Part shown: one piece after another, positions 4,382 to 44,332 of the stretch
Layout of the letters: each line of letters begins with the position of its first letter
How positions within the stretch are numbered: the first letter of the stretch is position 1
DNA from: a virus
DNA: 64,000 nucleotides
IMG/VR virus record: IMGVR_UViG_3300029334_000002
Direction: 5' to 3' (one strand)
Made by a program: the position numbers and the translations under genes
The notes under the pieces: generated by a model
Databases searched by the model: none
What the model was told of the DNA's origin: nothing
What the model saw: only the letters and a program-made list of their open reading frames with translations

Positions 4382-4397
4382 AAACTAATCTGACCTT

Positions 4398-6056: not shown

Positions 6057-6058
6057 TG

Positions 6059-25303: not shown

Positions 25304-25308
25304 TAAGT

Positions 25309-25464: not shown

Positions 25465-25469
25465 TCTAG

Positions 25470-26027: not shown

Positions 26028-26172
26028 AAGCTACTCACCACAACACTAAGTATATCAATAACGCCAACAATTAGTAATATTATATAAAATCTTGTTCCAT
26101 GTATCCCTATTGATGAGCAATAGGCTCCTAGAATACCCCAACATAGAATATTCAAAATTGATAAAAATGTTT

Positions 26173-26394: not shown

Positions 26395-26398
26395 CGTT

Positions 26399-27181
26399 CT
26401 ACTCCTGTAATTTTCGTGCTGAATAACAAATTTCTTTATATTTCATAACTGCATCATACACTTCATCTGGAATTATATTTTTATATTGTTTGACGACAAT
26501 TTCTATAATTTTCTTTTTAGCAATGTTATATGAATTACTTGCTTCCTCTTCTGACTCGAAACGTCCCAAATAAATTTTTTCTCCATTAACTCCATTGCAA
26601 CTTGCTATATATGCTCCGGACTTTATTTTTTGTACTCCTAAAGCATAATTACCTCTATCATTTTTTCTATCTAGCACAATTGTATTTAATCTATGGGGTA
26701 ATAACAAACAGGTGTCGGGACTATATATTTTATTTCCAATAACTTTTATATCTTTGTCCAATTCAAGTGAGTCGTCCTTTGATAAGATATATTTATGTTC
26801 GCTGTACCATTTTGCAAAATTTTGATAATTTTTCCATTCGTCGCATACATAGCAATCAATATAATTTTGATTTTTAATATATTTATCGCTATAACATCTT
26901 GTTAACATAGATCCCCATTTTGTATATTCTTCTGTATGAGAAACACCAACTTTAGTTTTAAAAGGGCCATAACCTCTATAACCAACACCTAAATAAGTGG
27001 GAATATTATAGTTTATAATATTTCCTTTTTTGAAATATTGATAATAAGTGTGTCTCACAATAATTCCATCTTCGAATTGGATATCAATATCGTGGACATT
27101 TTTATATCTAATAATTTGCATCTTTAATCCTTGTTTATTAATATTTTCTTCTCCGGTTCGGTCTATTTTTTGCATAGTCAA
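26399..27181 (-). CDS. Putative free-standing homing-endonuclease-like protein (AP2-type DNA-binding domain plus HNH-like region)
   Basis: KIYLGRFESEEEASNSYNIAKKK matches the AP2 domain signature. LELDKDIKVIGNKIYSPDTCLLLPHRLN resembles the HNH cores of phage HEGs. Confidence 0.35.
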   Translation of the reverse strand: MTMQKIDRTGEENINKQGLKMQIIRYKNVHDIDIQFEDGIIVRHTYYQYFKKGNIINYNIPTYLGVGYRGYGPFKTKVGVSHTEEYTKWGSMLTRCYSDKYIKNQNYIDCYVCDEWKNYQNFAKWYSEHKYILSKDDSLELDKDIKVIGNKIYSPDTCLLLPHRLNTIVLDRKNDRGNYALGVQKIKSGAYIASCNGVNGEKIYLGRFESEEEASNSYNIAKKKIIEIVVKQYKNIIPDEVYDAVMKYKEICYSARKLQE

Positions 27182-28023
27182 TTCACCCTTATAATCTGTT
27201 CATACAAACAAATATCCTTATCAGAAACTGCAAGATTTTGATGATAATGTCCAAAAATATTTTTTCTATAATCAACATTACATCTGATCTCTTCCAAATA
27301 ATCAGTTAGCTTATCCGGTTTATATAATCCATGTGATAATAATGCTGCTGTAGAAGAAGCTGTACAATGCGTTAGGATAAAATCTACTTTATTATCATGT
27401 TCTGCCAGGTTCTTTATACCTTCATCCATCTCTTCTTGATTCGGCATTTCTCGCTCCCACCATGAAATGTGATTAATTCGGTACATTTTATCCGGATCAT
27501 CTCTCCATTCTTTTACTCTTGGATCATCAATCTCTAATACTCCATCTGAAATATCATGACTGGCAGCTCCACCAAAAGTAAAGAATTTTAACCCGTCTAT
27601 ATCAAATACCTGTCCTCTCATAAGATGAATTACTGATGGTTTAATAAAATGTACCTTACCACCATGCCATTCTTCTACCGGATAAGCATCTAATATATCG
27701 TAACATTCATGATTTCCGTCAATAAAGAGTGTTGTGAAATGCTTCTCTTCAAGCCAATTCAGATACCACCTTTGCTGCGGTGAATCTCTCCATATCCCAA
27801 AATCTCCAAGAACAATTACATAATCTTCTTTAGTCATCTCTCTTTGTTCCGGGAACGAGTCCATATTTAATCTATGGATCCAACCCCCATGTGTATCACC
27901 CGTAATCCAAATTATTTCCACCACCTCCAACAATATGTAGCAAATGAAAATCCTACAAGAATCATGAAATATGCTATAGGTATCGCGAAGAACATTTTCA
28001 TAATTGAAATTAGTAAAATACAC
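27178..28023 (-). CDS. Calcineurin-like metallophosphoesterase (Ser/Thr phosphatase or 2',3'-cyclic phosphodiesterase type)
   Basis: Motifs IWITGDTHGG, VLGDFG and GNHE. The real start is probably downstream of the annotated one. Confidence 0.6.
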   Translation of the reverse strand: MYFTNFNYENVLRDTYSIFHDSCRIFICYILLEVVEIIWITGDTHGGWIHRLNMDSFPEQREMTKEDYVIVLGDFGIWRDSPQQRWYLNWLEEKHFTTLFIDGNHECYDILDAYPVEEWHGGKVHFIKPSVIHLMRGQVFDIDGLKFFTFGGAASHDISDGVLEIDDPRVKEWRDDPDKMYRINHISWWEREMPNQEEMDEGIKNLAEHDNKVDFILTHCTASSTAALLSHGLYKPDKLTDYLEEIRCNVDYRKNIFGHYHQNLAVSDKDICLYEQIIRVN

Positions 28024-29026: not shown

Positions 29027-29998
29027 TTATTTATTTTCAACAGTTGCTATATTGCCTGATGTTAATTCTCCTGCGTCAACAATTGTTGCAGCATTTCCAC
29101 CTTGTACCTTCGGCACATCACCATTCCACTTATCAATCTTCTGTTTCTCAATAAGTTCTGGAGTAAGTGACTCAGCGATCTTTTTATTTGCTTCTGCTTC
29201 AGCATCCGCTTTAATTCTTGTAGCTTCAGCTTTACCTTCCGCAGTGATTTTCGCCTGTTCAGCTTCAATAGCGGCTTTCTCTTTATCCTGCTCCGCTGCG
29301 ATGAGAGCAACTTCCTTATCTTTATCTGCCTGTACCTTTGCAGTCTTAGCTTCAATATTTGCAAGTTCCAGTTCCTGCTGTGCATTTACTTTCTTCTGAA
29401 TAGCAGCCTGAGTTTCATCATCTGTAGAAATTGAAGTAAAGTTTACAGTATCAATGATGATTCCATATGGCTCAAATTTCTTTTTCAAGTATTTGTCAAG
29501 TGCTTCATTCAGTTCCTGGCGTTTATCACCAAATACATCTGTTACCGGATACTTAGCAGTTACTTCCTGTGTCCACGCTTTCATCTTTGGTTTAATGAAA
29601 GTATTTTTTACACTTTCTCCGGACTGACCTTTAAATCTTGTAAATACATCAGCAACTTGATCCTGATCGAACTTATAAGAGAATTCCAAATCAACAAGAA
29701 GCTGTTTCCCATCTGCGGTAGGAGTTTTAAAACTCTCATCTTTTGGTGAATCACCTTTATCTTCTGAAGTCAGATAAGACTGTTCAATACCAATTGAATA
29801 CAGTGATGTTTTTACTGTAGGTGAAATCAAATTCCATCCCTGTGAAAGAGTATCTTTTGAAATTCCACCGTTCATCTTGTATTCTACAGCTACATAACCA
29901 GCAGGAACTCTTACTGTGCACTTTGCTACACAAATTAATCCTGCTGCAATTATTACTGCTAATCCAACCCCACCTAAAAAACCTTTTTTCTTTTTCAT
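29027..29998 (-). CDS. SPFH / band-7 (stomatin-prohibitin-flotillin-HflC) membrane protein
   Basis: N-terminal TM anchor, band-7 core, and a C-terminal Ala/Glu/Lys coiled coil (IEAKTAKVQADKDKEVALIAAEQDKEKAAIEAEQAKI). Confidence 0.65.
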   Translation of the reverse strand: MKKKKGFLGGVGLAVIIAAGLICVAKCTVRVPAGYVAVEYKMNGGISKDTLSQGWNLISPTVKTSLYSIGIEQSYLTSEDKGDSPKDESFKTPTADGKQLLVDLEFSYKFDQDQVADVFTRFKGQSGESVKNTFIKPKMKAWTQEVTAKYPVTDVFGDKRQELNEALDKYLKKKFEPYGIIIDTVNFTSISTDDETQAAIQKKVNAQQELELANIEAKTAKVQADKDKEVALIAAEQDKEKAAIEAEQAKITAEGKAEATRIKADAEAEANKKIAESLTPELIEKQKIDKWNGDVPKVQGGNAATIVDAGELTSGNIATVENK

Positions 29999-30186
29999 TA
30001 CTCATTCTCCTTATCTTTTTCTTTATTTTCTTCTCTGTTTATTTCGTCTACTGCATCTTTCCAAATTCTATGCAAGAATCGTCCGAATGGATAAAACAGT
30101 GCAGATAATAGAAACCATAAAATTACTGCTCCAACCAATACTAAAAATACAAATACTGGATTCATGCTCTCTCCTTTATAATTCAA
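29998..30186 (-). CDS. Small membrane protein
   Basis: Hydrophobic ORF coupled to the SPFH gene. Confidence 0.3.
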   Translation of the reverse strand: MNYKGESMNPVFVFLVLVGAVILWFLLSALFYPFGRFLHRIWKDAVDEINREENKEKDKENE

Positions 30187-30427
30187 TACCTTCCATAACA
30201 GCTCTAGCTTCTAAAATAGCTAAATAATTTGCCATAGCATCAATCTGAATATTATAAATGCTTCTTGGGCATGTTGGCTCAAAACTAAGACTTCCATTGT
30301 CCCATTTAAAAAGTATAGACTGCAAACCTCTGAATCTAAGCATTAACTGGTAATATTCAGCTTTGAATCTCTCGTTATAATCTGGGCTAACCATCATTTC
30401 TGTTGTTTCTTTTAATGTTTTTACCAT
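30176..30427 (-). CDS. Hypothetical small protein
   Basis: ORF only. Confidence 0.3.
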   Translation of the reverse strand: MVKTLKETTEMMVSPDYNERFKAEYYQLMLRFRGLQSILFKWDNGSLSFEPTCPRSIYNIQIDAMANYLAILEARAVMEGIEL

Positions 30428-30576
30428 GTTATTTGTCTCCTTTATATTCTTTAATATTATTTACAAATGTCCAAGTGAAAAAAGCTACTAGCATTAAACT
30501 AAATAAATTTTTATAAGTAATAAGATCTACTAATGATATTGCTATAAAAATAGCATCAAGAATGATAAAAAATATG

Positions 30577-30999
30577 TTAAGTTTCATTTAATTCATCTCT
30601 CACTCTCATAAGTATCTTCCCAAGCCTATTTTCTCCAACTCCATCTACAGTTCCCCAAATAGTATCTCCCCAAGTATTACCCTCTTCCAGATGCTCGTTT
30701 CCTGTAGCAAGTAATTTTTCCTTAAGGTCTGGATTCTGAGTGAATTTAGCCAGTACAATTTCATACATTACTTTATCTTTCACTTCTTCCCAATCTGATC
30801 TCAAATCAATCTTTCTACCTGCTGCCTTTGCCTCTGATGGGCTAGCTTGAGAAAATAACTGGAATTTTAGTCTACGATTTTTTGTTTTCTGTGCTTGAAA
30901 AGCTGCTTCATTATTTGTATAGTCCCATCCGTTATAACTTACCGGTGCCATATAAAAGTTACTTAAAAAGTAATAATCTCCAGTAAAACTATTAATCAT
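30577..30999 (-). CDS. NADAR-domain protein (YbiA/DUF1768 family; N-glycosidase / ADP-ribose-processing)
   Basis: GDYYFLSNFY near the N-terminus (NADAR hallmark GxYxxLSNF), a conserved W/E pattern, about 140 aa. Confidence 0.65.
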   Translation of the reverse strand: MINSFTGDYYFLSNFYMAPVSYNGWDYTNNEAAFQAQKTKNRRLKFQLFSQASPSEAKAAGRKIDLRSDWEEVKDKVMYEIVLAKFTQNPDLKEKLLATGNEHLEEGNTWGDTIWGTVDGVGENRLGKILMRVRDELNET

Positions 31000-31010
31000 T
31001 TTTCTCCTTC

Positions 31011-31193
31011 CTAATAATCACTACAAGTTACTGTCAAACTTACAAATCCATCATTTTGCTCAAAAGATGTAATAAACTCATCTTTTACCAATTCTTCTAC
31101 TATATCTCTGTCAGTTATTTTTGCTCCAATTAATTTAGGATCAGTCAAGTCGTATTCAGCTTCTACAGTGATCACTCTTTTTGTTGGTGCCAA
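31011..31193 (-). CDS. Hypothetical small protein (TTG start)
   Basis: ORF only. Confidence 0.25.
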   Translation of the reverse strand: MAPTKRVITVEAEYDLTDPKLIGAKITDRDIVEELVKDEFITSFEQNDGFVSLTVTCSDY

Positions 31194-31426
31194 AATTTCC
31201 TTTTCACATGCGTCATCAATTGGTTTATTTAATATTCGTTTTCCTCTTTGCGTAATATCACCTCCATATTTTATTTCATTGTTTAACCTCCTTAAGTGTA
31301 GGTGAGGAATTGAACCCCACCTTAACCTTTTGTTACTACACTTATTTTCTCTTCCCTACAAAGAATCCAACTAAGAAACAGGTTAATAAGCATACTACAA
31401 ACACGCCTATATTTAACACTATCATT

Positions 31427-32173
31427 TTATTTGCCTTTCTTTGTTTTCAGTTCCTGCAACTTTTTATTAATTTCATCATCTTTCATTTTCTTATCCAGAC
31501 GCTGTTTTTGCACAATAGTAGAACTTTCATAAACGATCCTAGCTCCATCAGCAGCCTCTTTTTGCTTTTTAACTCCGTCACGTACTTTCTCTAGCATCTT
31601 TTCCTCTTCACTAGAAGATACTCCCGGTGTTACATTAAAAGCTTTTGATGCCTGAGCTGTTTCCAAAGTTAAAACAGCACTTTCTTTTTCTGCTTTTAAA
31701 TCATTAAGCTGTTGCTGTAATACTTCTACTTTTTCTTTCTGTACGTCAGCATTCTCTTTCCATTCTTTTAATGTACTCTTAATAAAATCAATCTTATCAT
31801 TCAGCTCCTGTTGTTCTTTTAAGTAGACTTTTGCTGCTTCGTCATCTCCTCGATCCACACAAGCATTTACATTTACATCTGCTTTCATGGCATCTTTCTT
31901 CAAATGGAACAGGTCATCTTCATAATTGGAAATCTTACCAAGCATCTGTTGATATCTTACATTTTCCTGCTGAAGTTCATCTTCTTTCTTTTCAATAGCA
32001 GCGTTATAATAAGCTTTAGCTCCCTCAGGGGTGGCTGCATCTTTTTGAATTGCTTCGTCTGCTGTACCAGCAACTCTAAGTGACACTCTCTTACCAATTT
32101 GAGTTGTACGTGCAATAAATAACACAATACTAATTACTACAGCTATTAGGACCACAATTTCAAATAAGTTCAT
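31427..32173 (-). CDS. PspA/IM30-like coiled-coil protein with an N-terminal TM helix
   Basis: N-terminal hydrophobic helix, then a PspA-like coiled coil (CVDRGDDEAAKVYLKEQQEL resembles the PspA ALQKGDEDLAREAL segment). Confidence 0.45.
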   Translation of the reverse strand: MNLFEIVVLIAVVISIVLFIARTTQIGKRVSLRVAGTADEAIQKDAATPEGAKAYYNAAIEKKEDELQQENVRYQQMLGKISNYEDDLFHLKKDAMKADVNVNACVDRGDDEAAKVYLKEQQELNDKIDFIKSTLKEWKENADVQKEKVEVLQQQLNDLKAEKESAVLTLETAQASKAFNVTPGVSSSEEEKMLEKVRDGVKKQKEAADGARIVYESSTIVQKQRLDKKMKDDEINKKLQELKTKKGK

Positions 32174-32811
32174 TAGTCTCTCCCCTCATCAATATCAAGC
32201 CCAAAGTTTTTAAACAGTTCTGTCATACCTCCCACATAACCGGAACCTAATGCCTGGAATTTGAATCCATCTCCGTAACGGTATAATTTACCCATTTCTA
32301 CTGCATTCAATTTTTCAAAGTTCTCATTCTCAGACAGATCATATTCATACTTATCACCATCTGGATTGTCGTAATCACAAATTGTCATAACTGCATTGGA
32401 GACCATTCCAAAGTTCTGCATACGCTGTAATGCCCTAAAAATTGTTAAGCAGATAGTAAATTCTGTTTTATCTTTCGGGAATGTGTCAGCATGTACAATA
32501 AAATATTCGTCATAATGCTTTCCATTAAAAATCATTCCCTGAGAATCATCACCAGTTTTATTGTCTCCTGAATAATCTACCCAAGGATATGCAGACCCAT
32601 CTTCATAGGTTTTATAGTTTACTAAATCTTCTGGGTATACTACTTTGCGACTTGAATCTGTTAAAAATCCATTGATATCAAAGTCAATATCTGCTTCACC
32701 AGCATAACGGTTCTGATCCCAATTGACTCCAATGAAGAAGTTCTTAATACCTGTACCATCCTCTTTTACCATACTAATTTTCTGATTTTTGCTCATGTTG
32801 ATTACTGCCAT
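32173..32811 (-). CDS. terD: TerD-family protein (tellurite-resistance / Ca-binding TerD domain)
   Basis: MAVINMSKNQKISMVK...IGVNWDQN, GDNKTGDD, FGMVSNAVMTICD and FKFQALGSGYVGGM align along the whole length with E. coli TerD. Confidence 0.8.
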   Translation of the reverse strand: MAVINMSKNQKISMVKEDGTGIKNFFIGVNWDQNRYAGEADIDFDINGFLTDSSRKVVYPEDLVNYKTYEDGSAYPWVDYSGDNKTGDDSQGMIFNGKHYDEYFIVHADTFPKDKTEFTICLTIFRALQRMQNFGMVSNAVMTICDYDNPDGDKYEYDLSENENFEKLNAVEMGKLYRYGDGFKFQALGSGYVGGMTELFKNFGLDIDEGRD

Positions 32812-32828
32812 ATCTCTTTATCTCCTTT

Positions 32829-33596
32829 TTATTTATTATTCAGCCAGTCTTTATACTGACGAAGAATCTCTGTATATAACTGTTCATCAGACATTTTATT
32901 CATGTCTTTTACTGCTGTAAAACCGGTGTTATCATGTTTTCTACCTTTCATATTGTCAAGGGATTTTAAATAACCAAAATCTTCATCCCCAATTCCTATG
33001 AACTGTACAAAGATGTTGTACTCTGAAAGCTCTTTAATAACTGCATTGGTGGCAGAAGTGTCACTGTTCTCACCATCTGTAATAAAGATGATAAATGCTG
33101 GAATCTCACTTGGCTCGATATCTTTATAATATGTAACCATTTCTTTCAATACAGGAGCATAATTAGTACCACCCATATACATATGAGCTTTTTTCATAAC
33201 ATTTTTAACATAACTACTATAATTATCAGCGTTAGCAGCTTTTAAGCGCTCCGCTCCATTTGAGAACAACCAACTCTCAAGTTCTCCATTATCGTCAAAT
33301 CTTAGAGCAATAGGCAACAAACGAGAAATGGTTTCCTGTACAGATCCATTATCATACAGCCAATCCATACTTCCTGAATAATCCATTGCAAGAGCTACTC
33401 TAGCTGTATGTTTTGTCATATCAATCTTGCTTCCCTTAGACATATCAATAAGTACTTTGCCAAGATTTTCACTGTGCTTAGACATATCAATTGTCTGTGA
33501 CTTTTCTTCATATACAGGTTGCTGAGTTACAGCAGAAGATAACTCTACTGCTGCTTCCTCATCTTTTTTTCCGAATAGTTTTCCCAAAAATCCCAT
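32829..33596 (-). CDS. von Willebrand factor A (vWA) protein, TerY/TerF-C-like
   Basis: MIDAS motif ALAMDYSGSM and a vWA core (FIIFITDGENSD). It sits immediately next to terD. Confidence 0.65.
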   Translation of the reverse strand: MGFLGKLFGKKDEEAAVELSSAVTQQPVYEEKSQTIDMSKHSENLGKVLIDMSKGSKIDMTKHTARVALAMDYSGSMDWLYDNGSVQETISRLLPIALRFDDNGELESWLFSNGAERLKAANADNYSSYVKNVMKKAHMYMGGTNYAPVLKEMVTYYKDIEPSEIPAFIIFITDGENSDTSATNAVIKELSEYNIFVQFIGIGDEDFGYLKSLDNMKGRKHDNTGFTAVKDMNKMSDEQLYTEILRQYKDWLNNK

Positions 33597-33597
33597 T

Positions 33598-36219
33598 TTA
33601 GTTACTTCCTTTCTTACAAATTGTTTTTCTAATCCAATCTACAGGTACAACCATAAATGCTGTCACAAGGACTACAATCCACTGTTTAACATCCATTGGA
33701 GTTGTCTGTACTAGATTTCCTACAAAGTTACACAAAACTACAGCCATTGCAAAAATACCTAATGCGATATACACAAATAATTTATTATTTTTAATTCCTT
33801 TGAAAAGATTCATACTATCTGTTCTAATAGTGAATCCATTAAATACTGCCATTAAACACAATAAAGCGAATCTCGCTGTCATAGCCGAAAGTTTTGTTGC
33901 AAACATATTTCCAACTGGACCAAATGTAATTACACCAAATAAAGCAATAAATACAATTGAACTTAATGCAATTCTCCCTTTCGCTCCACGGATAAATAAT
34001 CCGGATCCTTTCATGATAGGCTCTTCATTCATATATTCCTCTTTTGGCGGTTCTCCACCAAAGCTTAATGAGTTAAGTGAATCCATGATGATATTTACAA
34101 TAAGGATCTGAACTGCTGCTAATAGAGCAGAGCCACCAGAAATAATTGGAAATACCATACTTAAGATCAACAACGAAATATTGATAGGCAGCTGGAATTC
34201 AAGGAACATCATAATGTTATGCATAAATGTTCTACCAAGTTCGACTGCCTTTACCACACTTGCAAAATTATTGTCTGTCAAAACAATATCTGCAGCTTCT
34301 TTTGCTACATCAGATCCGTCTTGCATTCCAAAGCCTACATCTGCTTTCTTTAATGCGGGAGCATCGTTCACACCGTCACCGGTCATAGCAACAGACATCC
34401 CAATTTCTTGTGCTAATGTTACAAGACGAAGCTTTGTATTTGGTGAACATCTGGAGATTACTCTTAACTGTGGAATAATTTCTTTTACTTTTACATCTGA
34501 CATTGCCTCAAACTCATCATTGGTAACTGCTAAGTCTCCAGGCTTATAAATGCCAGCTTCCATAGCAACAGCCTTAGCAGTTTCCATACAGTCACCAGTA
34601 ATTTCAATTACCTGAATTCCAGCTTTATGAGCAATTTTTACTGCTTCTGGAACTTCATTCCTAACCGGGTCAACAACTCCAATGATTCCAAGGAGATTCA
34701 TTTCATCGGGGAGACCATCATCAGTTTTATCTGAGATAGTCAATGCAATACATCTCATTGCCTTCTCTGTTAATCCCTTAATATGGCTCTTTAAAGCTTT
34801 TCTTTTTTCTTCTGTCAGCTCAGTTACAATGCCATCATTATCAAGATAAAATTTACACTTCTCAATTAATTTCTCTGGTGCGCCTTTATAAACAGTAAAA
34901 TCATTTGCTCCATTATTTAAAGTAACTGCAGAGAATTTATTTTCACTACTAAATGGAACACGTTTCTTCATGATAGCTTTATTCTGTATTTTTTGTGCGT
35001 CTTCAGGAGAAAGCATATCAAACACTGCTCGATCAATTGAATTCCCACCAGTGATATTCCCATTAGAATCAAACACTGCACTATTATTCATACAAATGTT
35101 TAAATCAATTAGCTCGTTGAGCGAACTTTCCTTATTAAAAATATCCTGACAGTTACCGTTAATCATAACTGTAGAAGTCATTTCACCTGTTGTGAGAGTT
35201 CCTGTCTTATCCGTACAAATTAAATTAACATACGCCAATTCAGGAATTTTACCAGTATTCTTCGCAAGAATATTGAATTTTTCCATTGTCGATACATTCT
35301 GTTTAGTTACAAGTTTTACAATGAGTGGCAGACCTTCCGGTACAGCCGCAACAATAATTGTCAATGCATTTGAGACATTCTGTGCTACCTTCTGAATACT
35401 TTCAAGAATACTTCCTGAGAAATACTGACTTAAGCTTCCAGCATTTAAGATACCTGTAATTGTCATAATTACAAATGCTAATGCTGCCGCAATTGTTCCC
35501 CATTTTGAAATAAAATCACACAAATGATCCAGAGCAATATCAAGAGCTGTCTTAGGAGGCTCTAAAGTCTGCATTTTGACAAGAGTATCACCATTAACTG
35601 TATTAACACCAACATCTGTAACAATCATTTTTCCTTCACCAGACATGATAACTGTTCCTGCAAAGAGAGAACACTGATCCGTATATGCAGTAGTTGATGT
35701 TGTTTTAACATGCTTATAATTAGCACTAGGAATTTTTCTACATTCTTTTGTCTCTCCATTGATAGCGGCGTTATTAACAGAAATTTCTCCATCAACAATA
35801 AATCCATCTGCAAAAATCTCTTGTCCAGTTCTCAATAGAACTAAATCACCTACTACCAGATCATCTTTATTAATTGTCTGTACGCTTCCATCTCGGACAA
35901 CATCACAATATCTAACTGCCGTTTTTGCTCTTAGCTCTGCTGCAGATTTCTGTACGCCTAGACCTGTCTTAATAGCAATTCCAGTAACAATAGCTAAAAC
36001 CACTATAATCATTACAGGTTCAGAAAGAGACATTACTCCCATAGCTCCTAAAACCAACTGAAACAAAGCAATTATTATTAGAATCATAGTAATTGGTTCA
36101 GTTAATGCCTCCTTAGCAAAATGATACCATTTCTTCAATTCAGGCTCCGGAAGCTTATTACTTCCATATGTAGTCCTACTAACCTCTACTTCGCTACTTT
36201 TTAATCCATTAAAATTCAT
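33598..36219 (-). CDS. P-type cation-transporting ATPase (type II, Ca2+/Mg2+-like)
   Basis: Phosphorylation motif DKTGTLT, hinge TGDGVNDAPALKKADVGFGM, an N-terminal cation_ATPase_N-like region and about 10 TM helices. Confidence 0.8.
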   Translation of the reverse strand: MNFNGLKSSEVEVSRTTYGSNKLPEPELKKWYHFAKEALTEPITMILIIIALFQLVLGAMGVMSLSEPVMIIVVLAIVTGIAIKTGLGVQKSAAELRAKTAVRYCDVVRDGSVQTINKDDLVVGDLVLLRTGQEIFADGFIVDGEISVNNAAINGETKECRKIPSANYKHVKTTSTTAYTDQCSLFAGTVIMSGEGKMIVTDVGVNTVNGDTLVKMQTLEPPKTALDIALDHLCDFISKWGTIAAALAFVIMTITGILNAGSLSQYFSGSILESIQKVAQNVSNALTIIVAAVPEGLPLIVKLVTKQNVSTMEKFNILAKNTGKIPELAYVNLICTDKTGTLTTGEMTSTVMINGNCQDIFNKESSLNELIDLNICMNNSAVFDSNGNITGGNSIDRAVFDMLSPEDAQKIQNKAIMKKRVPFSSENKFSAVTLNNGANDFTVYKGAPEKLIEKCKFYLDNDGIVTELTEEKRKALKSHIKGLTEKAMRCIALTISDKTDDGLPDEMNLLGIIGVVDPVRNEVPEAVKIAHKAGIQVIEITGDCMETAKAVAMEAGIYKPGDLAVTNDEFEAMSDVKVKEIIPQLRVISRCSPNTKLRLVTLAQEIGMSVAMTGDGVNDAPALKKADVGFGMQDGSDVAKEAADIVLTDNNFASVVKAVELGRTFMHNIMMFLEFQLPINISLLILSMVFPIISGGSALLAAVQILIVNIIMDSLNSLSFGGEPPKEEYMNEEPIMKGSGLFIRGAKGRIALSSIVFIALFGVITFGPVGNMFATKLSAMTARFALLCLMAVFNGFTIRTDSMNLFKGIKNNKLFVYIALGIFAMAVVLCNFVGNLVQTTPMDVKQWIVVLVTAFMVVPVDWIRKTICKKGSN

Positions 36220-36221
36220 TC

Positions 36222-37256
36222 TTAAATCTCTCCTAATACAATTCTTTCATTGACAGACATTACAAATTCTTCTATAGCTTTATAATTTGGTTTATCAGGC
36301 AATAAGGTATTCTTTGAATCATACTCAAGTCTTTTCTCTAACTCGTTTACCATTTCAAAAAATTCTGGGATAGGCTGACTGTTTGCATCCAAATATTCTC
36401 CATTACGTAGAGCCATAAGAAGCTCATGATCATCTTCTCTATATGTAATAATTTTGCCTTTTTCAAGAATATCAAAACACATAAGATACAATCTCACTAA
36501 ATGGCACATATGCTTTCCTAACTTATTATGTTCTATGGCATGCTTATTTCTCTTCCCAATTCTGGAATAATCCCTAATAATGTTTTTCATTTCGGCCCAC
36601 ATCCCCTGATAATCATTCAAAGGATAGTGCTTCAACTGGATATCCATAAATACTTCTGTTTCATAATCTTCCTGAATACCTTTATCTACATAAAGCTTTA
36701 TTGCATCTTCTGGAAAATTGAAATACTTTTCAGGGAAAGTATAAAAAGCATTCATAATACTATTAAGAACATGCTGCATTCTTTCTTCTTGTCTCAATTT
36801 CCTGGCAGCTTTATTATCAAGCCTTCTTAACTGGCTTGTAGCATAGCCTCCAAAAGAATAGATTGCTTTCTTAGATAAAAACATTTCAGCATTATCAAGA
36901 AGTTCTTGACCAATTGGATGAATATAAAGATAATGTTCTGGCTTCAATCCTATCAGCTCAATTGTGTTTGGGTTGCAGTTTGACAATAGAGTTATCAATT
37001 TATTAAAAGAATAGATTGTTGTATCTGTTGTTTCTTCCGTTACCTGATCAAAATTATGTGTAGGAATCAGGATTTCTTCTCTTTTATTTAAAGCACAACC
37101 CCTAATATCCAGATCGGAGTTTTCTGTATCTGTACCATAAGCATGAGACCCACCTAAGCCTAATAGAATTATGTTACTCCCCAGGTGCTCGTTCGCTCTT
37201 AAGAAATCATAGTGTTCACTTTTCAACAATTTTTTGATTTTCTCTATTTTCATCAA
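36222..37256 (-). CDS. Pol-beta superfamily nucleotidyltransferase
   Basis: GLGGSHAYGTDTENSDLDIRG fits the G[GS]x9-13[DE]h[DE]h minimal-NTase signature. Confidence 0.45.
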   Translation of the reverse strand: MMKIEKIKKLLKSEHYDFLRANEHLGSNIILLGLGGSHAYGTDTENSDLDIRGCALNKREEILIPTHNFDQVTEETTDTTIYSFNKLITLLSNCNPNTIELIGLKPEHYLYIHPIGQELLDNAEMFLSKKAIYSFGGYATSQLRRLDNKAARKLRQEERMQHVLNSIMNAFYTFPEKYFNFPEDAIKLYVDKGIQEDYETEVFMDIQLKHYPLNDYQGMWAEMKNIIRDYSRIGKRNKHAIEHNKLGKHMCHLVRLYLMCFDILEKGKIITYREDDHELLMALRNGEYLDANSQPIPEFFEMVNELEKRLEYDSKNTLLPDKPNYKAIEEFVMSVNERIVLGEI

Positions 37257-37734
37257 TTTCTCCTGTTGAATAATAATAATTTACTATATCGTCTAAGTTC
37301 CTTATCTCTTTTTCTAACTCTGCGCACTTTTTCTTGCTATCACATGCCCATAACTGTTTTCGTAGCTTCGTTGCAACCTCAGATACCTTTTCTGCTTCTT
37401 CTGTTTTATCAATGGTTTCTATGACATCAACTTCAATTGGTTCTCCGCAAAATGGACAGAATTTAAGAGGGTAATAATAGTCTTCAGGCCATGTATCTTC
37501 CCAGTCTTGGACTTCTTCGCTTATGTAAAAGAAAATTCCAAAAGTTTCATCAGTTTTATAGTCACAACCATGGCATTCTATAGTTTCACAAGTTCTACAT
37601 AAGTAGGCATCAGGATATTCATTAGAAATAATTATCCTAGGATTTTCTTCCAATGCCTTACAACAGAACTTTGGTTTATAATACTTATAAGATGTGTTGC
37701 CATCTACAATTATTTCCTTTGCTTTTATTTCCAT
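37216..37734 (-). CDS. Cys-rich hypothetical protein (several CxxC pairs)
   Basis: CC..C, CRTC..C, CPFC. Confidence 0.3.
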   Translation of the reverse strand: MEIKAKEIIVDGNTSYKYYKPKFCCKALEENPRIIISNEYPDAYLCRTCETIECHGCDYKTDETFGIFFYISEEVQDWEDTWPEDYYYPLKFCPFCGEPIEVDVIETIDKTEEAEKVSEVATKLRKQLWACDSKKKCAELEKEIRNLDDIVNYYYSTGEIDENRENQKIVEK

Positions 37735-37743
37735 GTTTACACC

Positions 37744-38127
37744 TCAGATAATCTGTAAGTTTTCATCACCAATAAGCCATGCAGAATTTAAAATAAAATT
37801 TTCATATGGGTCGCCACTGTCACCCCAGAACTCATCCGATCCAACTTCCCAATCGCCCAATGTTCCATCATTAAAGTTACCGTATAAATAATCTGCTGTG
37901 TGTTCTAAAAACGCATCCACAGCCTTATCATAATCTTCTTTTCTTATTGACTCTTCTACATCCGGCTCAAGATCAATCCATTTATGTTGCTCAATCAAAA
38001 AAGATTTAGCGTTATCTCTTACTTCCAACAGTGAATTTTTAATGTCTGTCAATGTTGCATCTTTCTTTTTTGCAATGATATAACTTGAAGACGAACTATT
38101 AGTAACAAATCCTCTTCTTATTTTCAT
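37744..38127 (-). CDS. Member of the KxGFVTNSSSSS(F/Y) N-terminal-motif paralog family
   Basis: Starts MKIRRGFVTNSSSSSYII; the C-terminal region is divergent and acidic. Confidence 0.45.
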   Translation of the reverse strand: MKIRRGFVTNSSSSSYIIAKKKDATLTDIKNSLLEVRDNAKSFLIEQHKWIDLEPDVEESIRKEDYDKAVDAFLEHTADYLYGNFNDGTLGDWEVGSDEFWGDSGDPYENFILNSAWLIGDENLQII

Positions 38128-38522
38128 TAACCATCTCTCCCTTCTCCTTCAGCAACTTTTATATCAGCAAATCCATTTACTTCCGTAATAGCATCTATTG
38201 CTTCATTCATAGAGAAATCATAATCATATACAGCATCACCCCATTCATCATAATAAGCATCGTTCCTGTCCTCAATTACGATATATTCTCCATCAGGGTG
38301 CTTTTCTAAAATGTCATCAACCCCATAAATGACCGCTCCGCACCAACTAGCACCAAGCTCACCAGACCAGTTTTTTTCATCATTTACACCAGTAACATCT
38401 AATACATCAAGATTGAACTGATCAATTATCTTCTGAGCTTTTTCTTTGTCAGCAATCCTTGCAAAGCAAATAATGAAACTGCTAGAGCTTGAATTAGTAA
38501 CAAATCCTTTCCGTATTTTCAT
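38127..38522 (-). CDS. Member of the KxGFVTNSSSSS(F/Y) N-terminal-motif paralog family
   Basis: Starts MKIRKGFVTNSSSSSFII; tandem with the previous paralog. Confidence 0.45.
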   Translation of the reverse strand: MKIRKGFVTNSSSSSFIICFARIADKEKAQKIIDQFNLDVLDVTGVNDEKNWSGELGASWCGAVIYGVDDILEKHPDGEYIVIEDRNDAYYDEWGDAVYDYDFSMNEAIDAITEVNGFADIKVAEGEGRDG

Positions 38523-38534
38523 GAGCCCTCCTTT

Positions 38535-38723
38535 CTAGTGGCTCTCGCCACTAGATTTCTTATTCCACTTAGGTTTATCAGTTTTCATTTTATTTACATG
38601 TTTATAGAATGCAAGTGACTTTTTAGATGGCTTCATTCCATGTTTAACCATTCTAGTATGTTTCTTTCCGTTTTTATCTACTTTTGTCTCATACTCTTTG
38701 TTCCAGGAATTCTTTGATCTCAT
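38535..38723 (-). CDS. Small highly basic (Lys-rich) protein
   Basis: 62 aa, more than 30 percent Lys/Arg/His. Confidence 0.3.
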   Translation of the reverse strand: MRSKNSWNKEYETKVDKNGKKHTRMVKHGMKPSKKSLAFYKHVNKMKTDKPKWNKKSSGESH

Positions 38724-38724
38724 A

Positions 38725-39870
38725 TTACATGTCCTCCATTGAATAAATTACTTTTTCTAAGCTTCTTTTTGATTTGAAACACTTCTTAAGCAAACACCAC
38801 ATAATGGCTTTTTCAGTATCATCTTCGTCTTCCCAATCATTTAAGACTACAGAAGTCTGTGTTCCATCTTTGAACCCTACAGTAGTTCTAATTTTTCCTG
38901 TAGCAATATCTTTTGTTCTTCCTACAAATGTGATATCATCTTTCGAAAGTGTTTTACAAACCTGTTTATCAGTTTTATTTTTAGGTACAATATATACATC
39001 AATGCCTAAAGCATCTTTAATCTGGCGCTCACAGCTTCTAAGCTCTTCTCCAATAGTATGCTCTTTTTCTTTTTTCGCTACTGCTTTTTCAAGTGCTTTT
39101 AAAATCTCATCTGGTGACATATTCATATCTGTTTTCTCCTCTTTATAATTAAAATACTGCATTGGTTTCAGTTTAAACTTATTTTTTGTATGTAAACGAT
39201 CAATCCGTCTTTTAATTTCCGGATCATCGCAAATACCTGTACGAATATATCTATCTAATACTGCATAGGTAAATCCGAAGCTATCTTCATCTGATTTACC
39301 GCATAACCCATCTGATGGTGTTTTCTCTATATATTTTTTAGGTAGTCCTAAATAATAACCGATTCTTTTTACTTCACTCTTTGTGAACTGAGCCAACGGT
39401 GAAAAGTCCCCTGCTGCGTCACCATATCTAGTGGAGTATCCGATGTAATCCTCAGAAAGATTACATGTATTAACCACTCTTCCATTGTGTGACTGTGACA
39501 CCCCGTATAGAGTGGTCATTCTTAGTCTAGGAGCGAGATTAATTAATGTCTGATCTGTTACATTAAATGCAGCATCAATTTGATCAATAATATCATCATA
39601 GGCAGATCCAACATTGATAGTAAGATAATCAATCCCCAATACATGCTGGCAAATGTCATATGCCACATCAATATCATCCTGTTTATAGTTCGGCATGATT
39701 ACTCCGAGAACTTTGTCAGCTCCAACGGCTTCCACACATAGCTCAGCAGCTACTAAAGAGTCAACGCCACCGGAAATACCTACTATGAGATTACATCCAG
39801 GACCATTCTCTTCTCTCCAATCTCTAATCCACTGAATACAATCATTTGTTGCTTTTTCTACATTAAACAT
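38725..39870 (-). CDS. nadE: NadE-like PP-loop amidotransferase/synthetase (NAD+ synthetase family) with a C-terminal extension
   Basis: PP-loop LIVGISGGVDSLVAAEL followed by VLGVIMPN, the NadE-type arrangement. 381 aa, against about 275 aa for typical NadE. Confidence 0.55.
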   Translation of the reverse strand: MFNVEKATNDCIQWIRDWREENGPGCNLIVGISGGVDSLVAAELCVEAVGADKVLGVIMPNYKQDDIDVAYDICQHVLGIDYLTINVGSAYDDIIDQIDAAFNVTDQTLINLAPRLRMTTLYGVSQSHNGRVVNTCNLSEDYIGYSTRYGDAAGDFSPLAQFTKSEVKRIGYYLGLPKKYIEKTPSDGLCGKSDEDSFGFTYAVLDRYIRTGICDDPEIKRRIDRLHTKNKFKLKPMQYFNYKEEKTDMNMSPDEILKALEKAVAKKEKEHTIGEELRSCERQIKDALGIDVYIVPKNKTDKQVCKTLSKDDITFVGRTKDIATGKIRTTVGFKDGTQTSVVLNDWEDEDDTEKAIMWCLLKKCFKSKRSLEKVIYSMEDM

Positions 39871-40405
39871 TCTGCTCCTCCAATTTCCACAGTTCTACTT
39901 CAAAACTACTTAATTCTTCTTCTATAATCTTATAAACCACTTCCCAGTCTGCTCCTCCTCTTCCGCAGCCTATTTTATATGGGAGTGCAATGGTTGTCTT
40001 GTGAGGTCTGTTATCAGCATCAAACCAATAAACAGGTATTTGTTGTCGAATAAAATTTAATCCTTCTCGAAAAGCTTTAACATCAGTATACTGTTTTCCA
40101 TCATATCCATACTTGTCTTGTGCAAATAAGGACAATATCTCTTGATTTTTCCTTCTGATAAAGTACTCGTCATATGTTCCAAGAAGTAATTCTGGATTAA
40201 ATTCACGTAATTTACAAACGTTTCTATAATGTATATAAATACCTTCGTCATAATCTCTTAATGCTTTAGCAACTCCAGTATTCATTTCTCCTTGGCAATT
40301 AACTTGATGAATTATATAATCGGTCTGTGCATCTACAATGTTACCTTCAATAATTTTAATCATAAATCTTTTCCTATAAATCCTGAAATGTAAACTTCTC
40401 GCCAC
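39863..40405 (-). CDS. Macro-domain protein (ADP-ribose binding / hydrolase)
   Basis: IIEGNIVDAQTDYIIHQVNCQGEMNTGVAKALRD matches the macro-domain N-terminal signature (GDIT...DAIVNAAN...GGGVA). Confidence 0.6.
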   Translation of the reverse strand: MARSLHFRIYRKRFMIKIIEGNIVDAQTDYIIHQVNCQGEMNTGVAKALRDYDEGIYIHYRNVCKLREFNPELLLGTYDEYFIRRKNQEILSLFAQDKYGYDGKQYTDVKAFREGLNFIRQQIPVYWFDADNRPHKTTIALPYKIGCGRGGADWEVVYKIIEEELSSFEVELWKLEEQNV

Positions 40406-40775
40406 AGGAGCAAATCACTTCTCCAATAGTTCCGATTGATGTTGGTGTAAAGCACCATGTAAGAGAGCCGCCTATGCAACCATGTCCCATTGCTCTCTGT
40501 TCCATAGTTTTCAAACCATGTTTCTCAGCATCATGTTTTAATTCCCACTCTCTGATTTTCTCTTGTTCTTTTTCTGAAATTGGAAATCCTCTATACAGAT
40601 CCTCTTTTGCTTCTTTTAACTCGGTTGCCATTCTCTGCATTTCTGAATCTTTATAATGCTCATCTTTGAGTTTTTTATTTTCTTCTTCCAGATACTCAAT
40701 ACGTCTCTCTTTGTCAACTGTCTTGTCAATAATTCCTTGACAAAGATCTGAGATTGATGCGTTAAAAAAATTCAT
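40374..40775 (-). CDS. Hypothetical protein
   Basis: ORF only. Confidence 0.3.
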   Translation of the reverse strand: MNFFNASISDLCQGIIDKTVDKERRIEYLEEENKKLKDEHYKDSEMQRMATELKEAKEDLYRGFPISEKEQEKIREWELKHDAEKHGLKTMEQRAMGHGCIGGSLTWCFTPTSIGTIGEVICSCGEKFTFQDL

Positions 40776-42242
40776 TTAATTCCCTCCATTTAGTCTATTC
40801 CTGATCTTTTTGAATGTTTCTACATAACACATTTCACCATCTTTAAATACAGTTTTTAATGCCCCATCATAAACAAAGCTGTCATATCCATCTCTGCACC
40901 TTAATTCTCCATTTTCATCGTAATATACATGACAACATCCTTTATGAGATTTCTTTAAATGGCTTACATCTGTCTTTGGATCTTTGTAAATCATAATCGG
41001 TTGTCCGTTAACTTCTCCAAATGTAGCTTTCATAGCAATGCCGAACATATCTCTGGTTACAACGACCATACGTCCATCAGGTTCTACAACTGCCGAGAAA
41101 CAAAAAGCCCCAACTCCAAATACAATGTTGTTTGCAGCGAATCCTTTCTTCTCAAGTTCTTCCCATACCTTTTTTACATTGTTAAGAGTACAGCCATCAC
41201 CATAGATAATTCCAATATGAGGGTCCAGTACTTTGTAACCTTTGCTATTTACTGATCCTTCAAATGTATTCCAGAGTTTTTCGATAGTCTTAACTGAAAT
41301 CTCTACCATATCACCAGAATCCGGACGAACCAAGAGCTTACCATTGTGCTGCATAATTTCTTTTTTGCAAGCTGGAAGAATATTGTCAATCATGTTCCAG
41401 TAATCATATGTATCAGATACCATGCTGAAAGATGCATTCGGATATAATTCTGTAAGTAGTCTTTTCACAAATGTAATTTCGTCTCCGTCCACAGCATAAT
41501 TTGAAGCCATGACCGCATGTTCGGTAGAAATCGCACCAATTCCAATATGACTCACGCTACAGTCATTGAAATAATATTTGTCCAAATAATCAATTGCCGG
41601 GATCGTACTTGTCTTATCAAAGGATAATAGCCAAGCAACGGAGCATCTCTCTGCTTCTTCCATACAGGACATTCCACGCATTCCAAAGTCTGAGCAGGCC
41701 ATTTCAGGTCTTAAAATGTCGTCGCAGGTCTTTTTATAGTAGAAATTTGCCAGTTCTCTGTACATATGTCCAATTGTTGCATGAGCACACGGCTTCCAAA
41801 GCTCAACCTGCAGAATACACTCAATCCACTGCACAACCCATGCAAAATCTGGATGTGTATTCGTGATTTCAATGCATGGCACTCCCATAGGCACTAATGT
41901 ACCTTCCGGTAATGCACGGATCTGAATCGGAAGATACCCTAATTCGTGAAGTTTAAGGATTGGAGAAATATCGTAATTTCCTTCTCCTAACTGAATGTCC
42001 ATACTAATTGTATAAAGTTCTTGAACTTCATCAGTGCTTAATTTAAAGAAATCTCTTTTAAAATATGTAATAAGATATTCTTTAATAAAAGCCTGCAGTC
42101 CGAAGAAAACCATATGATCCTGCTCCTTTAACATTGATCTTCTCGGAGTCCAATAAGAGACTAACTTCGTCAATCCTCTCGGAAACATATTGTGGTGTAC
42201 TTGTTTGTAAGTATCGCTTAACAGAATTGCTAAGGTATCCAT
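40776..42242 (-). CDS. nadV: Nicotinamide phosphoribosyltransferase-like (NadV/NAMPT family; possibly a Namat-type ADPR-PP:nicotinamide transferase)
   Basis: N-terminus LLSDTYKQVHHNMFP matches the NAMPT start (TDSYKVTHYKQYP); about 490 aa, typical for the family. Confidence 0.7.
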   Translation of the reverse strand: MDTLAILLSDTYKQVHHNMFPRGLTKLVSYWTPRRSMLKEQDHMVFFGLQAFIKEYLITYFKRDFFKLSTDEVQELYTISMDIQLGEGNYDISPILKLHELGYLPIQIRALPEGTLVPMGVPCIEITNTHPDFAWVVQWIECILQVELWKPCAHATIGHMYRELANFYYKKTCDDILRPEMACSDFGMRGMSCMEEAERCSVAWLLSFDKTSTIPAIDYLDKYYFNDCSVSHIGIGAISTEHAVMASNYAVDGDEITFVKRLLTELYPNASFSMVSDTYDYWNMIDNILPACKKEIMQHNGKLLVRPDSGDMVEISVKTIEKLWNTFEGSVNSKGYKVLDPHIGIIYGDGCTLNNVKKVWEELEKKGFAANNIVFGVGAFCFSAVVEPDGRMVVVTRDMFGIAMKATFGEVNGQPIMIYKDPKTDVSHLKKSHKGCCHVYYDENGELRCRDGYDSFVYDGALKTVFKDGEMCYVETFKKIRNRLNGGN

Positions 42243-42610
42243 TATTTTTTATCCTCCTCTTTGTCATTTACAATTTTATCAATCTGATCTGTGATATAAT
42301 CAACTACATCTTTACCAGTTTTGCCAATTGTTTGAATATTATCTGGTGTGATTTCATTTACAACTGCCATCGTATATATTGTTTCTGTATTAGGTGTCAT
42401 GATTGTAATGATAGTCATTACAACACATCCGATAATTAATTTGCTAATAGTTTTTCTAAACTTAAATGGTTCGTTATATCCGGTTAATCCAGCAAATAAA
42501 GCACACATAGCAATAACTCCGCATATTCCTGCGATCATTCCAAAAAATGTTGTTAAATTATCTGCTCTACTAGCAGAATAAATCAACCAAGGACTAATAA
42601 TCGGTTTCAT
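42242..42610 (-). CDS. Small membrane protein
   Basis: Several hydrophobic helices. Confidence 0.35.
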   Translation of the reverse strand: MKPIISPWLIYSASRADNLTTFFGMIAGICGVIAMCALFAGLTGYNEPFKFRKTISKLIIGCVVMTIITIMTPNTETIYTMAVVNEITPDNIQTIGKTGKDVVDYITDQIDKIVNDKEEDKK

Positions 42611-42623
42611 ATTTTTATCTCCC

Positions 42624-43013
42624 TTATAACTTTCCTATCAAACAGCCCCAAGTAAAAGCAATCTGAAACATATGAGTTATCTGATCTTGAATTAAATTAA
42701 TTTTCTTTTTATTGGCTTTCATATCATCTACTAACATATGTATCAATAAATTCATAACCAATAATAAAGGATTCCATTTACCGCCAATAATCATAAGCGC
42801 AATTGTTGGTGGTAACATAATCATAAATGACCAACTAAAGCTATGCATAAACAACGCTGCTAAATAATCATATTTATATAATTTTCCTGGTGAATTCTTT
42901 TCCCACCATGATTTTTGTTTTGCAGATGCCAACCATCCTTGTAAATAATAATCATCTACAATGTGGCAGAAAATCATTGTAAATAATATAAATATTTTAT
43001 ATGCGATATTCAT
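42624..43013 (-). CDS. Small membrane protein
   Basis: Hydrophobic helices. Confidence 0.35.
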   Translation of the reverse strand: MNIAYKIFILFTMIFCHIVDDYYLQGWLASAKQKSWWEKNSPGKLYKYDYLAALFMHSFSWSFMIMLPPTIALMIIGGKWNPLLLVMNLLIHMLVDDMKANKKKINLIQDQITHMFQIAFTWGCLIGKL

Positions 43014-43816
43014 TATCTAAACCTCTCAACAAGTTCAATCTTAGGACTTTCCAGATTTGTCAAGATCGTATCTGTCGTATAAATCTTCTCAATCAATCCA
43101 TTATTTTTCAGAAGTTCTCCTTCATAAATAGTATTCTCACAATGAGTAATATAAAGATAAATCTTACCTACACCGGCCTCTTTCAGCTTTTTAGCACTAT
43201 AATAAAAAGTACCACCTCTGCTGCAAATGTCATCTACAATAAGAATGTCTTTACCTGGTAATTGATCAATTTCACCAGATAAATCTAAACCTTTAATCTC
43301 TCCGGTCTCCCAATCTCTATTCTTAATACCGAAAGCATATGGAAGATGTACTGCTGAAGAATATCGCTTCATGGATCCCGCATCCGGATAAAACATCATA
43401 AGGTTATTACTCGCAATCTTCTTAACAGCATCCTCAATCATTCGATTCGGGGATTCTACATGTACTTTATTAAATAATGCGGCAGATACATCAGAATGCG
43501 GATCTAAAACTTCTACTTTTCCAAAATGTAATGAATTAATAGTCTGAGCAAAATATTTTAAAGTAAATAATTCGTTCTCATGCTTGACTCGATCCATACG
43601 TGCATCTGGGATATAAGGCATATATAAATTAGGCACTACTCTATGATCCCAACAATATCTAGTAATATATTCAACTGCTGTTAATTCTTCCATTGATTCA
43701 AAGAACCATTCAATATTATCTCTACACCATCCTCCGATAGGTGGGATATTCTTAAATAAGAATGTCCCATCCGGATATTTATCAAGTTTGATTTCTACAC
43801 CGTTTAATTTAATCAT
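43013..43816 (-). CDS. Ribose-phosphate pyrophosphokinase-like (Prs family; possibly an Adps-type ADP-ribose pyrophosphokinase)
   Basis: LYMPYIPDARMDR (Prs PYxxYARQDR), LDPHSDV, and the PRPP-binding loop LIVDDICSRGGT. The N-terminus is shorter than in canonical Prs. Confidence 0.65.
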   Translation of the reverse strand: MIKLNGVEIKLDKYPDGTFLFKNIPPIGGWCRDNIEWFFESMEELTAVEYITRYCWDHRVVPNLYMPYIPDARMDRVKHENELFTLKYFAQTINSLHFGKVEVLDPHSDVSAALFNKVHVESPNRMIEDAVKKIASNNLMMFYPDAGSMKRYSSAVHLPYAFGIKNRDWETGEIKGLDLSGEIDQLPGKDILIVDDICSRGGTFYYSAKKLKEAGVGKIYLYITHCENTIYEGELLKNNGLIEKIYTTDTILTNLESPKIELVERFR

Positions 43817-43869
43817 TCCAAATCTCCTTATAATCTATTTCTTACTGTTTAATAATCCTTACTTAACTT

Positions 43870-44331: not shown

Positions 44332-44332
44332 C

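Follow-up and report, generated by a model that had tools for sequence, protein, structure and literature searches.

In a 64,000-nucleotide stretch of viral DNA (IMG/VR record IMGVR_UViG_3300029334_000002, hereafter the window), we found a macro-domain gene embedded in an NAD+ reconstitution operon of the NARP1 type and, farther along the same strand, a gene of the NADAR superfamily. With moderate confidence, we interpret this locus as an ADP-ribose-centred counter-defence island, in which a NARP1 core (Adps and Namat) is accompanied by a macro protein that is most likely Adpp and by a NADAR protein that is most likely of the AdfN type. That the genes are intact, belong to these families, keep the relevant residues and stand in a conserved order was observed directly. 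The genes concerned, including the small open reading frames (ORFs) between them, are the following:

44333-44881, minus strand: isochorismatase-family hydrolase, a possible nicotinamidase, at the head of the operon (Pfam Isochorismatase, 1.2e-25)
43013-43816, minus strand: putative Adps-type ribose-phosphate pyrophosphokinase homologue of NARP1 (TIGR01251, 2.9e-25, below the cutoff of that model)
42242-43013, minus strand: two small conserved ORFs, one of 122 aa and one encoding a 129-aa DUF3307 protein (DUF3307, 1.7e-5)
40776-42242, minus strand: putative Namat-type nicotinamide ADP-ribose transferase of NARP1, 488 aa (structures 9W5X/9W5W; phrog_448, 7e-161)
40374-40775, minus strand: 133-aa protein between Namat and macro, a partial homologue of an 83-aa ORF in the sister clade described below
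39863-40363, minus strand: macrodomain protein, 166 aa, of the phage Tk.4/Adpp family and the TARG1/ALC1-like class
38725-39870, minus strand: NAD synthetase, NadE (Pfam NAD_synthase, 3.7e-48; TIGR00552, 1e-47)
30577-30999, minus strand: NADAR protein, 140 aa (Pfam NADAR), with a YbiA-subfamily fold lacking the N-terminal extension

In many lineages, macro holds a constant and translationally coupled place in a NARP1-type operon, a context that fits the role of Adpp in NARP1-AP. In the window, the order Adps, two small ORFs, Namat, one small ORF, macro and NadE places the macro gene two genes downstream of Namat. Detection of Adpp has relied on a macro-domain gene lying within two genes of NARP1 (Osterman 2026 preprint, 10.64898/2026.01.28.702374), and the window gene lies within that distance. 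The ATG of NadE and the macro stop codon overlap by 8 nt, with a GGAGGAG ribosome-binding site (RBS) inside the 3' end of macro. When loci across IMG/VR were compared, macro followed Adps and Namat in 55 of 57, and relatives whose macro proteins share 39-42% identity with that of the window have the order isochorismatase, Adps, Namat, macro and NadE, with macro beginning where Namat ends. Long contigs yielded seven more homologues (41-50% identity), in all of which macro lies between a transferase of the nicotinate phosphoribosyltransferase (NAPRTase) family and NadE; in six of these seven lineages the transferase is Namat-type and has an Adps-sized gene ahead of it and an isochorismatase nearby. 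The seventh lineage (L116, ena:ERZ27297566:k141_485444, 1-6258) has a PncB-type NAPRTase instead, in the order NadR-like, PnuC-like (the NARP3 pair), isochorismatase, 321-aa ORF, PncB-type NAPRTase, Nudix, macro and NadE, and here the same macro family is attached to another NAD+ pathway. We also observed that an isochorismatase upstream and NadE downstream constantly flank the NARP1 pair (window 38725-44881, and loci L055, L108, L110, L112, L114, L115 and L117), an arrangement that we did not find described in the NARP papers searched and that hints at a nicotinate/nicotinic acid adenine dinucleotide (NaAD) branch.

By sequence, the genes beside macro would constitute NARP1 (Adps and Namat), in agreement with the initial annotation, which had placed the macro and NADAR genes next to NAD+ reconstitution genes. 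The window Namat matches the crystal structures of SPbetaL1 Namat (9W5X/9W5W) at 1e-109 (370 bits) and human NAMPT at about 1e-54 (186 bits). It has the catalytic TEH-motif histidine equivalent to Gary H243, the Asp of SDFGMRG and the F392 equivalent, with Met at the R40 position and a 10-aa insertion in place of the Y396 region. Relative to SPbetaL1 Namat, this insertion (VVEPDGRMVV, residues about 385-400) lies in the region of the selectivity-clamp helix. The Adps-type protein is a divergent Prs homologue with weak similarity to genuine Prs structures; by tblastn it has matches in about 1500 phage records, mostly annotated as ribose-phosphate pyrophosphokinase. Vibrio phage ICP1 is among them, as is Vibrio phage Ceto, which Table S1 of Osterman 2026 lists as a NARP1 phage. 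Among the remaining operon genes, the isochorismatase shows weak similarity to nicotinamidases (3.4e-7), and the 133-aa protein at 40374-40775 gave no family above threshold in profile scans. NadE carries a C-terminal extension of ~136 aa (38725-39147) that has no family match and is not found in its relatives (NadE of 246-268 aa).

Phages of a sister clade share much of this operon, with Adps and Namat 96-99% identical to those of the window, the 122-aa and DUF3307 ORFs between them 99% conserved, and the macro protein just 66% identical. The contrast in identity between Adps/Namat and macro indicates module swapping between the sister clade and the window. In the sister clade, a Tpt1/KptA RNA 2'-phosphotransferase (3e-48) is inserted between Namat and macro, and a SLOG protein follows macro. 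One example is L030, 5072-8923 (IMGVR_UViG_3300045988_163389), representative of about 30 similar loci, whose Namat is 649 aa long with a 161-aa C-terminal extension and is followed by Tpt1/KptA, an 83-aa ORF, macro, SLOG (YAcAr), a 191-aa ORF, NADAR, a 119-aa ORF and NadE. Tpt1 chemistry gives ADP-ribose 1''-2'' cyclic phosphate, a precursor of ADP-ribose-1''-phosphate (ADPR-1''P), and its presence beside the sister-clade macro points to small ADP-ribose (ADPR)-phosphate metabolism. Tpt1 is absent from the window. Members of the Tpt1/KptA family have also been reported to ADP-ribosylate 5'-phosphorylated nucleic acid ends. Its presence in the sister phages could accordingly be read to mean that macro and NADAR regulate or reverse ADP-ribosylation of host or phage targets by a transferase of the phage itself, in the manner of T4 Alt, ModA and ModB. 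We regard this as very improbable, given that the window has no Tpt1 and that scans of over 40 of its ORFs with Pfam, PHROGs or NCBIfam found no ADP-ribosyltransferase (ART) or DarT domain.

The initial annotation had identified the macro-domain protein correctly but with different boundaries. The longest ORF (39863-40405, minus strand) starts at a GTG at 40405 that overlaps the upstream gene, whereas the equivalent of ATG 40363 (MIKII...) is the start in 32 of 32 aligned homologues; because of both observations, we take the gene to be 39863-40363. The Pfam Macro model (PF01661) was not significant for the window protein (E 0.086, 13.2 bits; cutoff 22), although a precomputed PF01661 match is present in some of its homologues. 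As Pfam Macro fell below threshold, the domain was established instead through PHROGs (phrog_335, 1.5e-36), a 33-sequence family profile that matches the solved macrodomains of DarG, Bt_1257, Poa1p and TARG1 (2e-12 to 2e-6), and an AlphaFold model with a pLDDT of 92. The protein has a macro fold with the ADP-ribose-binding Asn and the Gly-rich phosphate loop. It is a single 166-aa domain with an isoelectric point (pI) of 5.0, to which DarG models match only via their N-terminal 140-145 positions, and the phage macro family to which it belongs is large, with members matched in 609 phage records.

Two functions have been reported for this family. Adpp of Vibrio phage Gary is an ADPR-1''P phosphatase that lets NARP1 overcome aRES, an NADase producing ADPR-1''P in place of ADPR, and substitution of its H24 and N27 abolished anti-aRES activity (Osterman 2026 preprint, 10.64898/2026.01.28.702374). 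T4 Tk.4 has been named AdfM, as its loss sensitises T4 to DarTG2 (HIDEN-SEQ preprint, 10.1101/2025.11.20.689424). The identity between Adpp and AdfM is 35% (E 2e-23), which leaves Tk.4 nearer to Gary Adpp than to the window macro. By sequence comparison, all three proteins fall into a single phage macro family, for which both roles have been reported. The closer relatives of the window macro are other NARP1-linked members, for example that of Vibrio phage RYC (Table S1 of Osterman 2026; 30%, E 4e-24). H24 and N27 of Gary correspond to H19 and N22 of the window protein, of which N22 is invariant and H19 nearly invariant across the family. A third residue, Q82, is an invariant Gln in the family, also present in T4 AdfM, and aligns with the catalytic Lys of DarG (K80) and TARG1 (K84); K80A inactivates DarG. 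The window macro thus resembles Gary Adpp in its family, in these residues and in lying within two genes of NARP1; it differs in subgroup and in gene order, which in Gary is Adps, macro, Namat, and the window operon adds isochorismatase and NadE. T4 Tk.4 likewise shares the family and the His/Asn/Gln positions and belongs to a different subgroup from the window macro, but its gene neighbours are tk, vs and regB, and the 8 kb covered there contain no gene for NAD salvage.

The NADAR ORF reported by the initial annotation at 30577-30999 is present, includes the GDYYFLSNFY motif, and is preceded by a strong RBS (GAAGGAG) ahead of its ATG. Its product matches Pfam NADAR (PF08719) at 1.5e-29 (103.8 bits; cutoff 35.1), and its PDB matches are E. 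coli YbiA (9e-19, the best) and the oomycete PnNADAR 8BAU (3.9e-8). Using the residue list of Schuller 2023 (PMC11543638), we mapped the protein by alignment to ADP-ribose-bound PnNADAR (8BAU), and all the residues that the annotation had proposed to check were found: E43 (window E31), K50 (K38), R79 (R62), W89 (W70), R93 (K74, a conservative R to K change), E125 (E106), D130 (D112) and W133 (W115). The predicted ADP-ribose-binding and catalytic set is therefore complete, with R93 as Lys. The E125 position is His in T4-type proteins and Asp in DarG1; the YbiA-type Glu at this position (E106) marks the window protein, an intact NADAR superfamily member, as one of the YbiA subfamily. It starts 8 residues ahead of the FLSNF motif and has a pI of 5.25.

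The closest experimentally supported counterpart of this protein is AdfN-Bas32 of Escherichia phage IrisVonRoten, whose gene we traced via the BASEL locus tags bas32_0066 and bas33_0070 and which shares 46% identity with the window protein over the full length (E 9e-44). In published experiments, AdfN-Bas32 neutralised DarT1 and allowed three phages to plaque again on DarTG1 hosts, with no effect on DarTG2 (Johannesman 2025, PMC11825919). Both proteins have the short YbiA-only architecture with catalytic Glu, Lys and Glu, and both are phage-encoded without a paired toxin. They differ in setting, as AdfN-Bas32 belongs to a T5-like coliphage and lies among nucleotide-metabolism genes, whereas homologues of the window NADAR are found inside NAD+ operons in related phages. 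T4 gp30.3 (AdfN-T4) and the DarG1 NADARs share the superfamily and the active-site Glu and Lys. The Phage_30_3 model of the T4 protein scores 18.9 bits on the window NADAR (cutoff 36), and DarG1 has an N-terminal basic DNA-binding extension, a catalytic Asp and an adjacent DarT1, none of which is seen at the window NADAR. As an orphan phage NADAR that is homologous to a validated AdfN and has no DarT or ART found nearby, the window protein would fit AdfN. The anti-DarT function proposed for it from the start is thereby supported by analogy.

In related phages, NADAR is closer to the NAD+ genes. In the sister clade, it is positioned between macro and NadE, 1.3-1.8 kb from macro, and in lineage L108/L109 macro is followed by NADAR and then NadE, the genes overlapping. 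Bacillus phage FADO (L002, 5195-6471) has a NADAR gene (annotated COG3236) two genes upstream of macro, with no NAD-salvage gene in the 12 kb covered, and in SPbetaL3 (L106) a NADAR 62% identical to that of the window lies about 3 kb from the anti-Gabija, anti-defence gene Gad1. We did not find the recurrent inclusion of NADAR in NARP1-type operons described in the papers searched.

Several observations weigh against the assignment of these two proteins to Adpp and AdfN. The window macro is just 26% identical to the sole validated Adpp, that of Gary (E 4e-9), and T4 AdfM is about as distant (24%, E 9e-9). A neighbour-joining tree puts both validated proteins together in a subgroup other than that of the window macro. 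The closest solved fold is Bt_1257, and SCO6735, which is 54% identical to Bt_1257, is a thymidine-ADP-ribose DNA hydrolase that uses the same Gln: it has Gln at the DarG Lys position, needs it for catalysis and reverses DarT modification efficiently (PMC9411070). For NADAR, the window protein exceeds the cutoff of TIGR02464, the riboflavin-intermediate N-glycosidase model (83.1 bits; cutoff 73.7); E. coli YbiA and T4 gp30.3 hydrolyse ADP-ribosylated guanine in vitro but alone do not rescue DarT1 toxicity; and the window gene sits 9 kb downstream of the NAD operon, behind unrelated cargo, namely a block with a P-type ATPase, vWA-TerF, TerD and PspA, together with further genes.

We considered several properties that might separate Adpp from AdfM, and each was rejected. 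Phylogeny is a poor guide to function since both share one subgroup of the tree, and matches to DarG models in NCBIfam/PADLOC are not evidence of DarG-like function since validated Adpp and NARP1-linked macros match the DarG model equally well. Loss of the DarG Lys was set aside as an argument against DNA activity because SCO6735 and T4 AdfM have Gln there, and net charge or pI was set aside as a proxy for DNA binding (the DNA hydrolases of cells are basic, AdfM has a pI of 5.9, and the family ranges from 4.6 to 8.6). Residues, profiles, fold, charge and tree all fail to tell the two roles apart. As one phage macro family bears two functional names, Adpp and AdfM, that sequence alone cannot separate, caution is needed in its annotation. 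What favours the Adpp role for the window macro is genomic context.

DNA de-ADP-ribosylation by the window macro is a possible activity, since AdfM of the same family counters DarTG2 and SCO6735 with the same Gln reverses DarT modification, though it is not the best-supported role. If this were the function of both genes, they would be orphan-antitoxin DNA de-ADP-ribosylases as in T4, with NADAR acting on the guanine ADP-ribose of DarT1 and macro on the thymidine ADP-ribose of DarT2, and the proximity to NARP1 would reflect island clustering. We hold this to be a possible but distinctly less probable explanation. The match of the macro protein to the DarG model is common to Gary Adpp, a validated phosphatase, and the mechanism of AdfM is itself a proposed one. 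Compared with the DarG2 macrodomain (5M31, 5M3I, 7OMU) and TARG1, the window protein has Gln at the catalytic Lys (K80 of DarG) and His at the equivalent of DarG N19, with neither a C-terminal DarT-binding domain nor an adjacent DarT. The ALC1-like subclass of SCO6735 and Bt_1257 consists of cellular, DNA-damage-induced proteins (PMC9411070); Bt_1257 is basic (pI about 9 for the available fragment) compared with the window pI of 5.0, and the match of the window family profile to SCO6735 is weak (E about 1e-4). Island clustering alone would also hardly account for a gene held so tightly between Namat and NadE, with coupled translation and deep conservation. The analogy to DarG first drawn for the macro protein is weaker than was assumed, given the change of K80 to Gln, the missing DarT-binding domain, the profile match shared with Adpp and the fixed place in the operon.

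Housekeeping roles would offer another reading of the same genes, in which a YbiA-like NADAR clears reactive riboflavin-pathway intermediates and a Poa1p-like macro clears ADPR-1''-phosphate arising from phage RNA repair. The TIGR02464 score and E. coli YbiA as the top PDB match agree with the first part; for the second, genes for an RNA ligase, a kinase resembling Pnkp, a nucleotidyltransferase of the RlaP type and metallophosphoesterases are present in the window, Tpt1 adjoins macro in the sister phages, and H23 of Poa1p is conserved in the window macro. Yeast Poa1p (6LFQ), itself an ADPR-1''-phosphate phosphatase, nevertheless has Ser at the Q82 position and very low sequence similarity to the window protein. 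No riboflavin genes were seen among the scanned ORFs, the window lacks Tpt1, the NADAR with 46% identity has proven anti-DarT1 activity, and NARP1 is itself a counter-defence pathway. We therefore judge the housekeeping explanation improbable.

A further tentative reading, the most novel one and one for which we would claim no great likelihood, treats macro and NADAR in this phage group as feeder enzymes rather than stand-alone erasers of DNA marks. They would belong to an expanded NAD+ operon (isochorismatase, Adps, Namat, macro, in some cases NADAR, and NadE) and convert ADP-ribose adducts to free ADPR for NARP1. Such adducts may be ADPR-1''P, ADP-ribose linked to bases of DNA or RNA and perhaps also N-linked ADPR signals of immunity, and the isochorismatase and NadE may add a deamidated (nicotinate/NaAD) branch. 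A NADAR-containing, NadE-terminated variant of NARP1 did not turn up in the papers searched.

Under the counter-defence island with Adpp and AdfN, which we favour, the activities and targets of all the island proteins are predicted as follows. Defence NADases would break NAD+, with those of the aRES type yielding ADPR-1''P, which might also be made by the sister phages' own Tpt1. The macro protein, as the accessory phosphatase Adpp, would convert ADPR-1''-phosphate to ADPR and so keep NARP1 able to rebuild NAD+; Adps would then turn ADPR into ADPR-PP, from which, together with nicotinamide, Namat would form NAD+. The genes of the isochorismatase-family enzyme and of NadE flank this NARP1 core. 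NADAR, as an AdfN-type N-glycosidase, would strip ADP-ribose off guanine in phage DNA modified by DarT1-like toxins, and macro may plausibly have a second activity, the removal of ADP-ribose from thymidine in DNA that has been proposed for T4 AdfM. Since both NADAR and macro would release free ADPR, the substrate of NARP1, this would explain why they cluster with it. For a feeder enzyme of this sort in NARP1 loci, RyDEP is a published precedent.

If these assignments are right, a single locus of this gut phage lineage combines several countermeasures to immunity based on NAD+ and ADP-ribose, namely NARP1 rebuilding of NAD+, a phosphatase that defeats the aRES work-around and a NADAR that erases DNA marks of the DarT1 type. 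The counter-defence proposal of the initial annotation, directed at DarTG-type and NAD-consuming systems, therefore stands in part: ADP-ribose-removing enzymes are linked to NAD+ reconstitution, with precedents in other phages, while the macro protein best fits an Adpp acting against aRES. Each element has a described counterpart, namely AdfN (2025), AdfM (2025 preprint), Adpp/NARP1-AP (2026 preprint) and Namat (2024-2026). The linkages of macro with NadE and of NARP1 with NADAR recur in distant uncultured phages, which suggests that ADP-ribose-releasing enzymes have been recruited to NARP1, possibly because their product is the NARP1 substrate. Such recruitment can be put to the test, and it would carry further the theme of accessory enzymes that Adpp and RyDEP represent.

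The window as a whole is a replication and nucleotide-metabolism region of a large gut phage, AT-rich (about 34% GC) and with nearly all of its genes on the minus strand. It encodes a ribonucleotide reductase, a split DNA polymerase, a helicase, a primase, an NAD-dependent DNA ligase, an RNA ligase, integrases and three tRNAs. A megablast search against known phages gave a single 3% match and no close cultured relative, while near-identical contigs of 50-250 kb are numerous in IMG/VR; within the phage collection, it is samples of human faeces that supplied the closest matches. Promoter and terminator scans showed no clear enrichment relative to shuffles. Other features of the region are these:

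50342-52393: NAD-dependent DNA ligase (phrog_3869, 6.5e-153)
29027-36219: cargo block with a PMCA-type P-type Ca2+-ATPase (873 aa), vWA-TerF, TerD, a PspA/IM30-like protein and SPFH/Band 7
24005-28023, 36222-37256 and 48673-49605: probable RNA-repair set of an RNA ligase, two calcineurin-like phosphoesterases, an RlaP nucleotidyltransferase and a Pnkp-like kinase with an HD domain

Through its NAD-dependent DNA ligase, the phage depends directly on NAD+ for replication-linked work. The cargo block is of a membrane and stress type unusual in phage, and it separates NADAR from the NAD operon. The DNA polymerase is apparently split at 11893-16677 into ORFs of 854 aa and 462 aa, which both match phrog_405 and phrog_12219, with a 214-aa ORF in between. 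At 37744-38522, a tandem pair of small paralogues (127 and 131 aa) shares the N-terminus MKIR.GFVTNSSSSS and matches phrog_7397.

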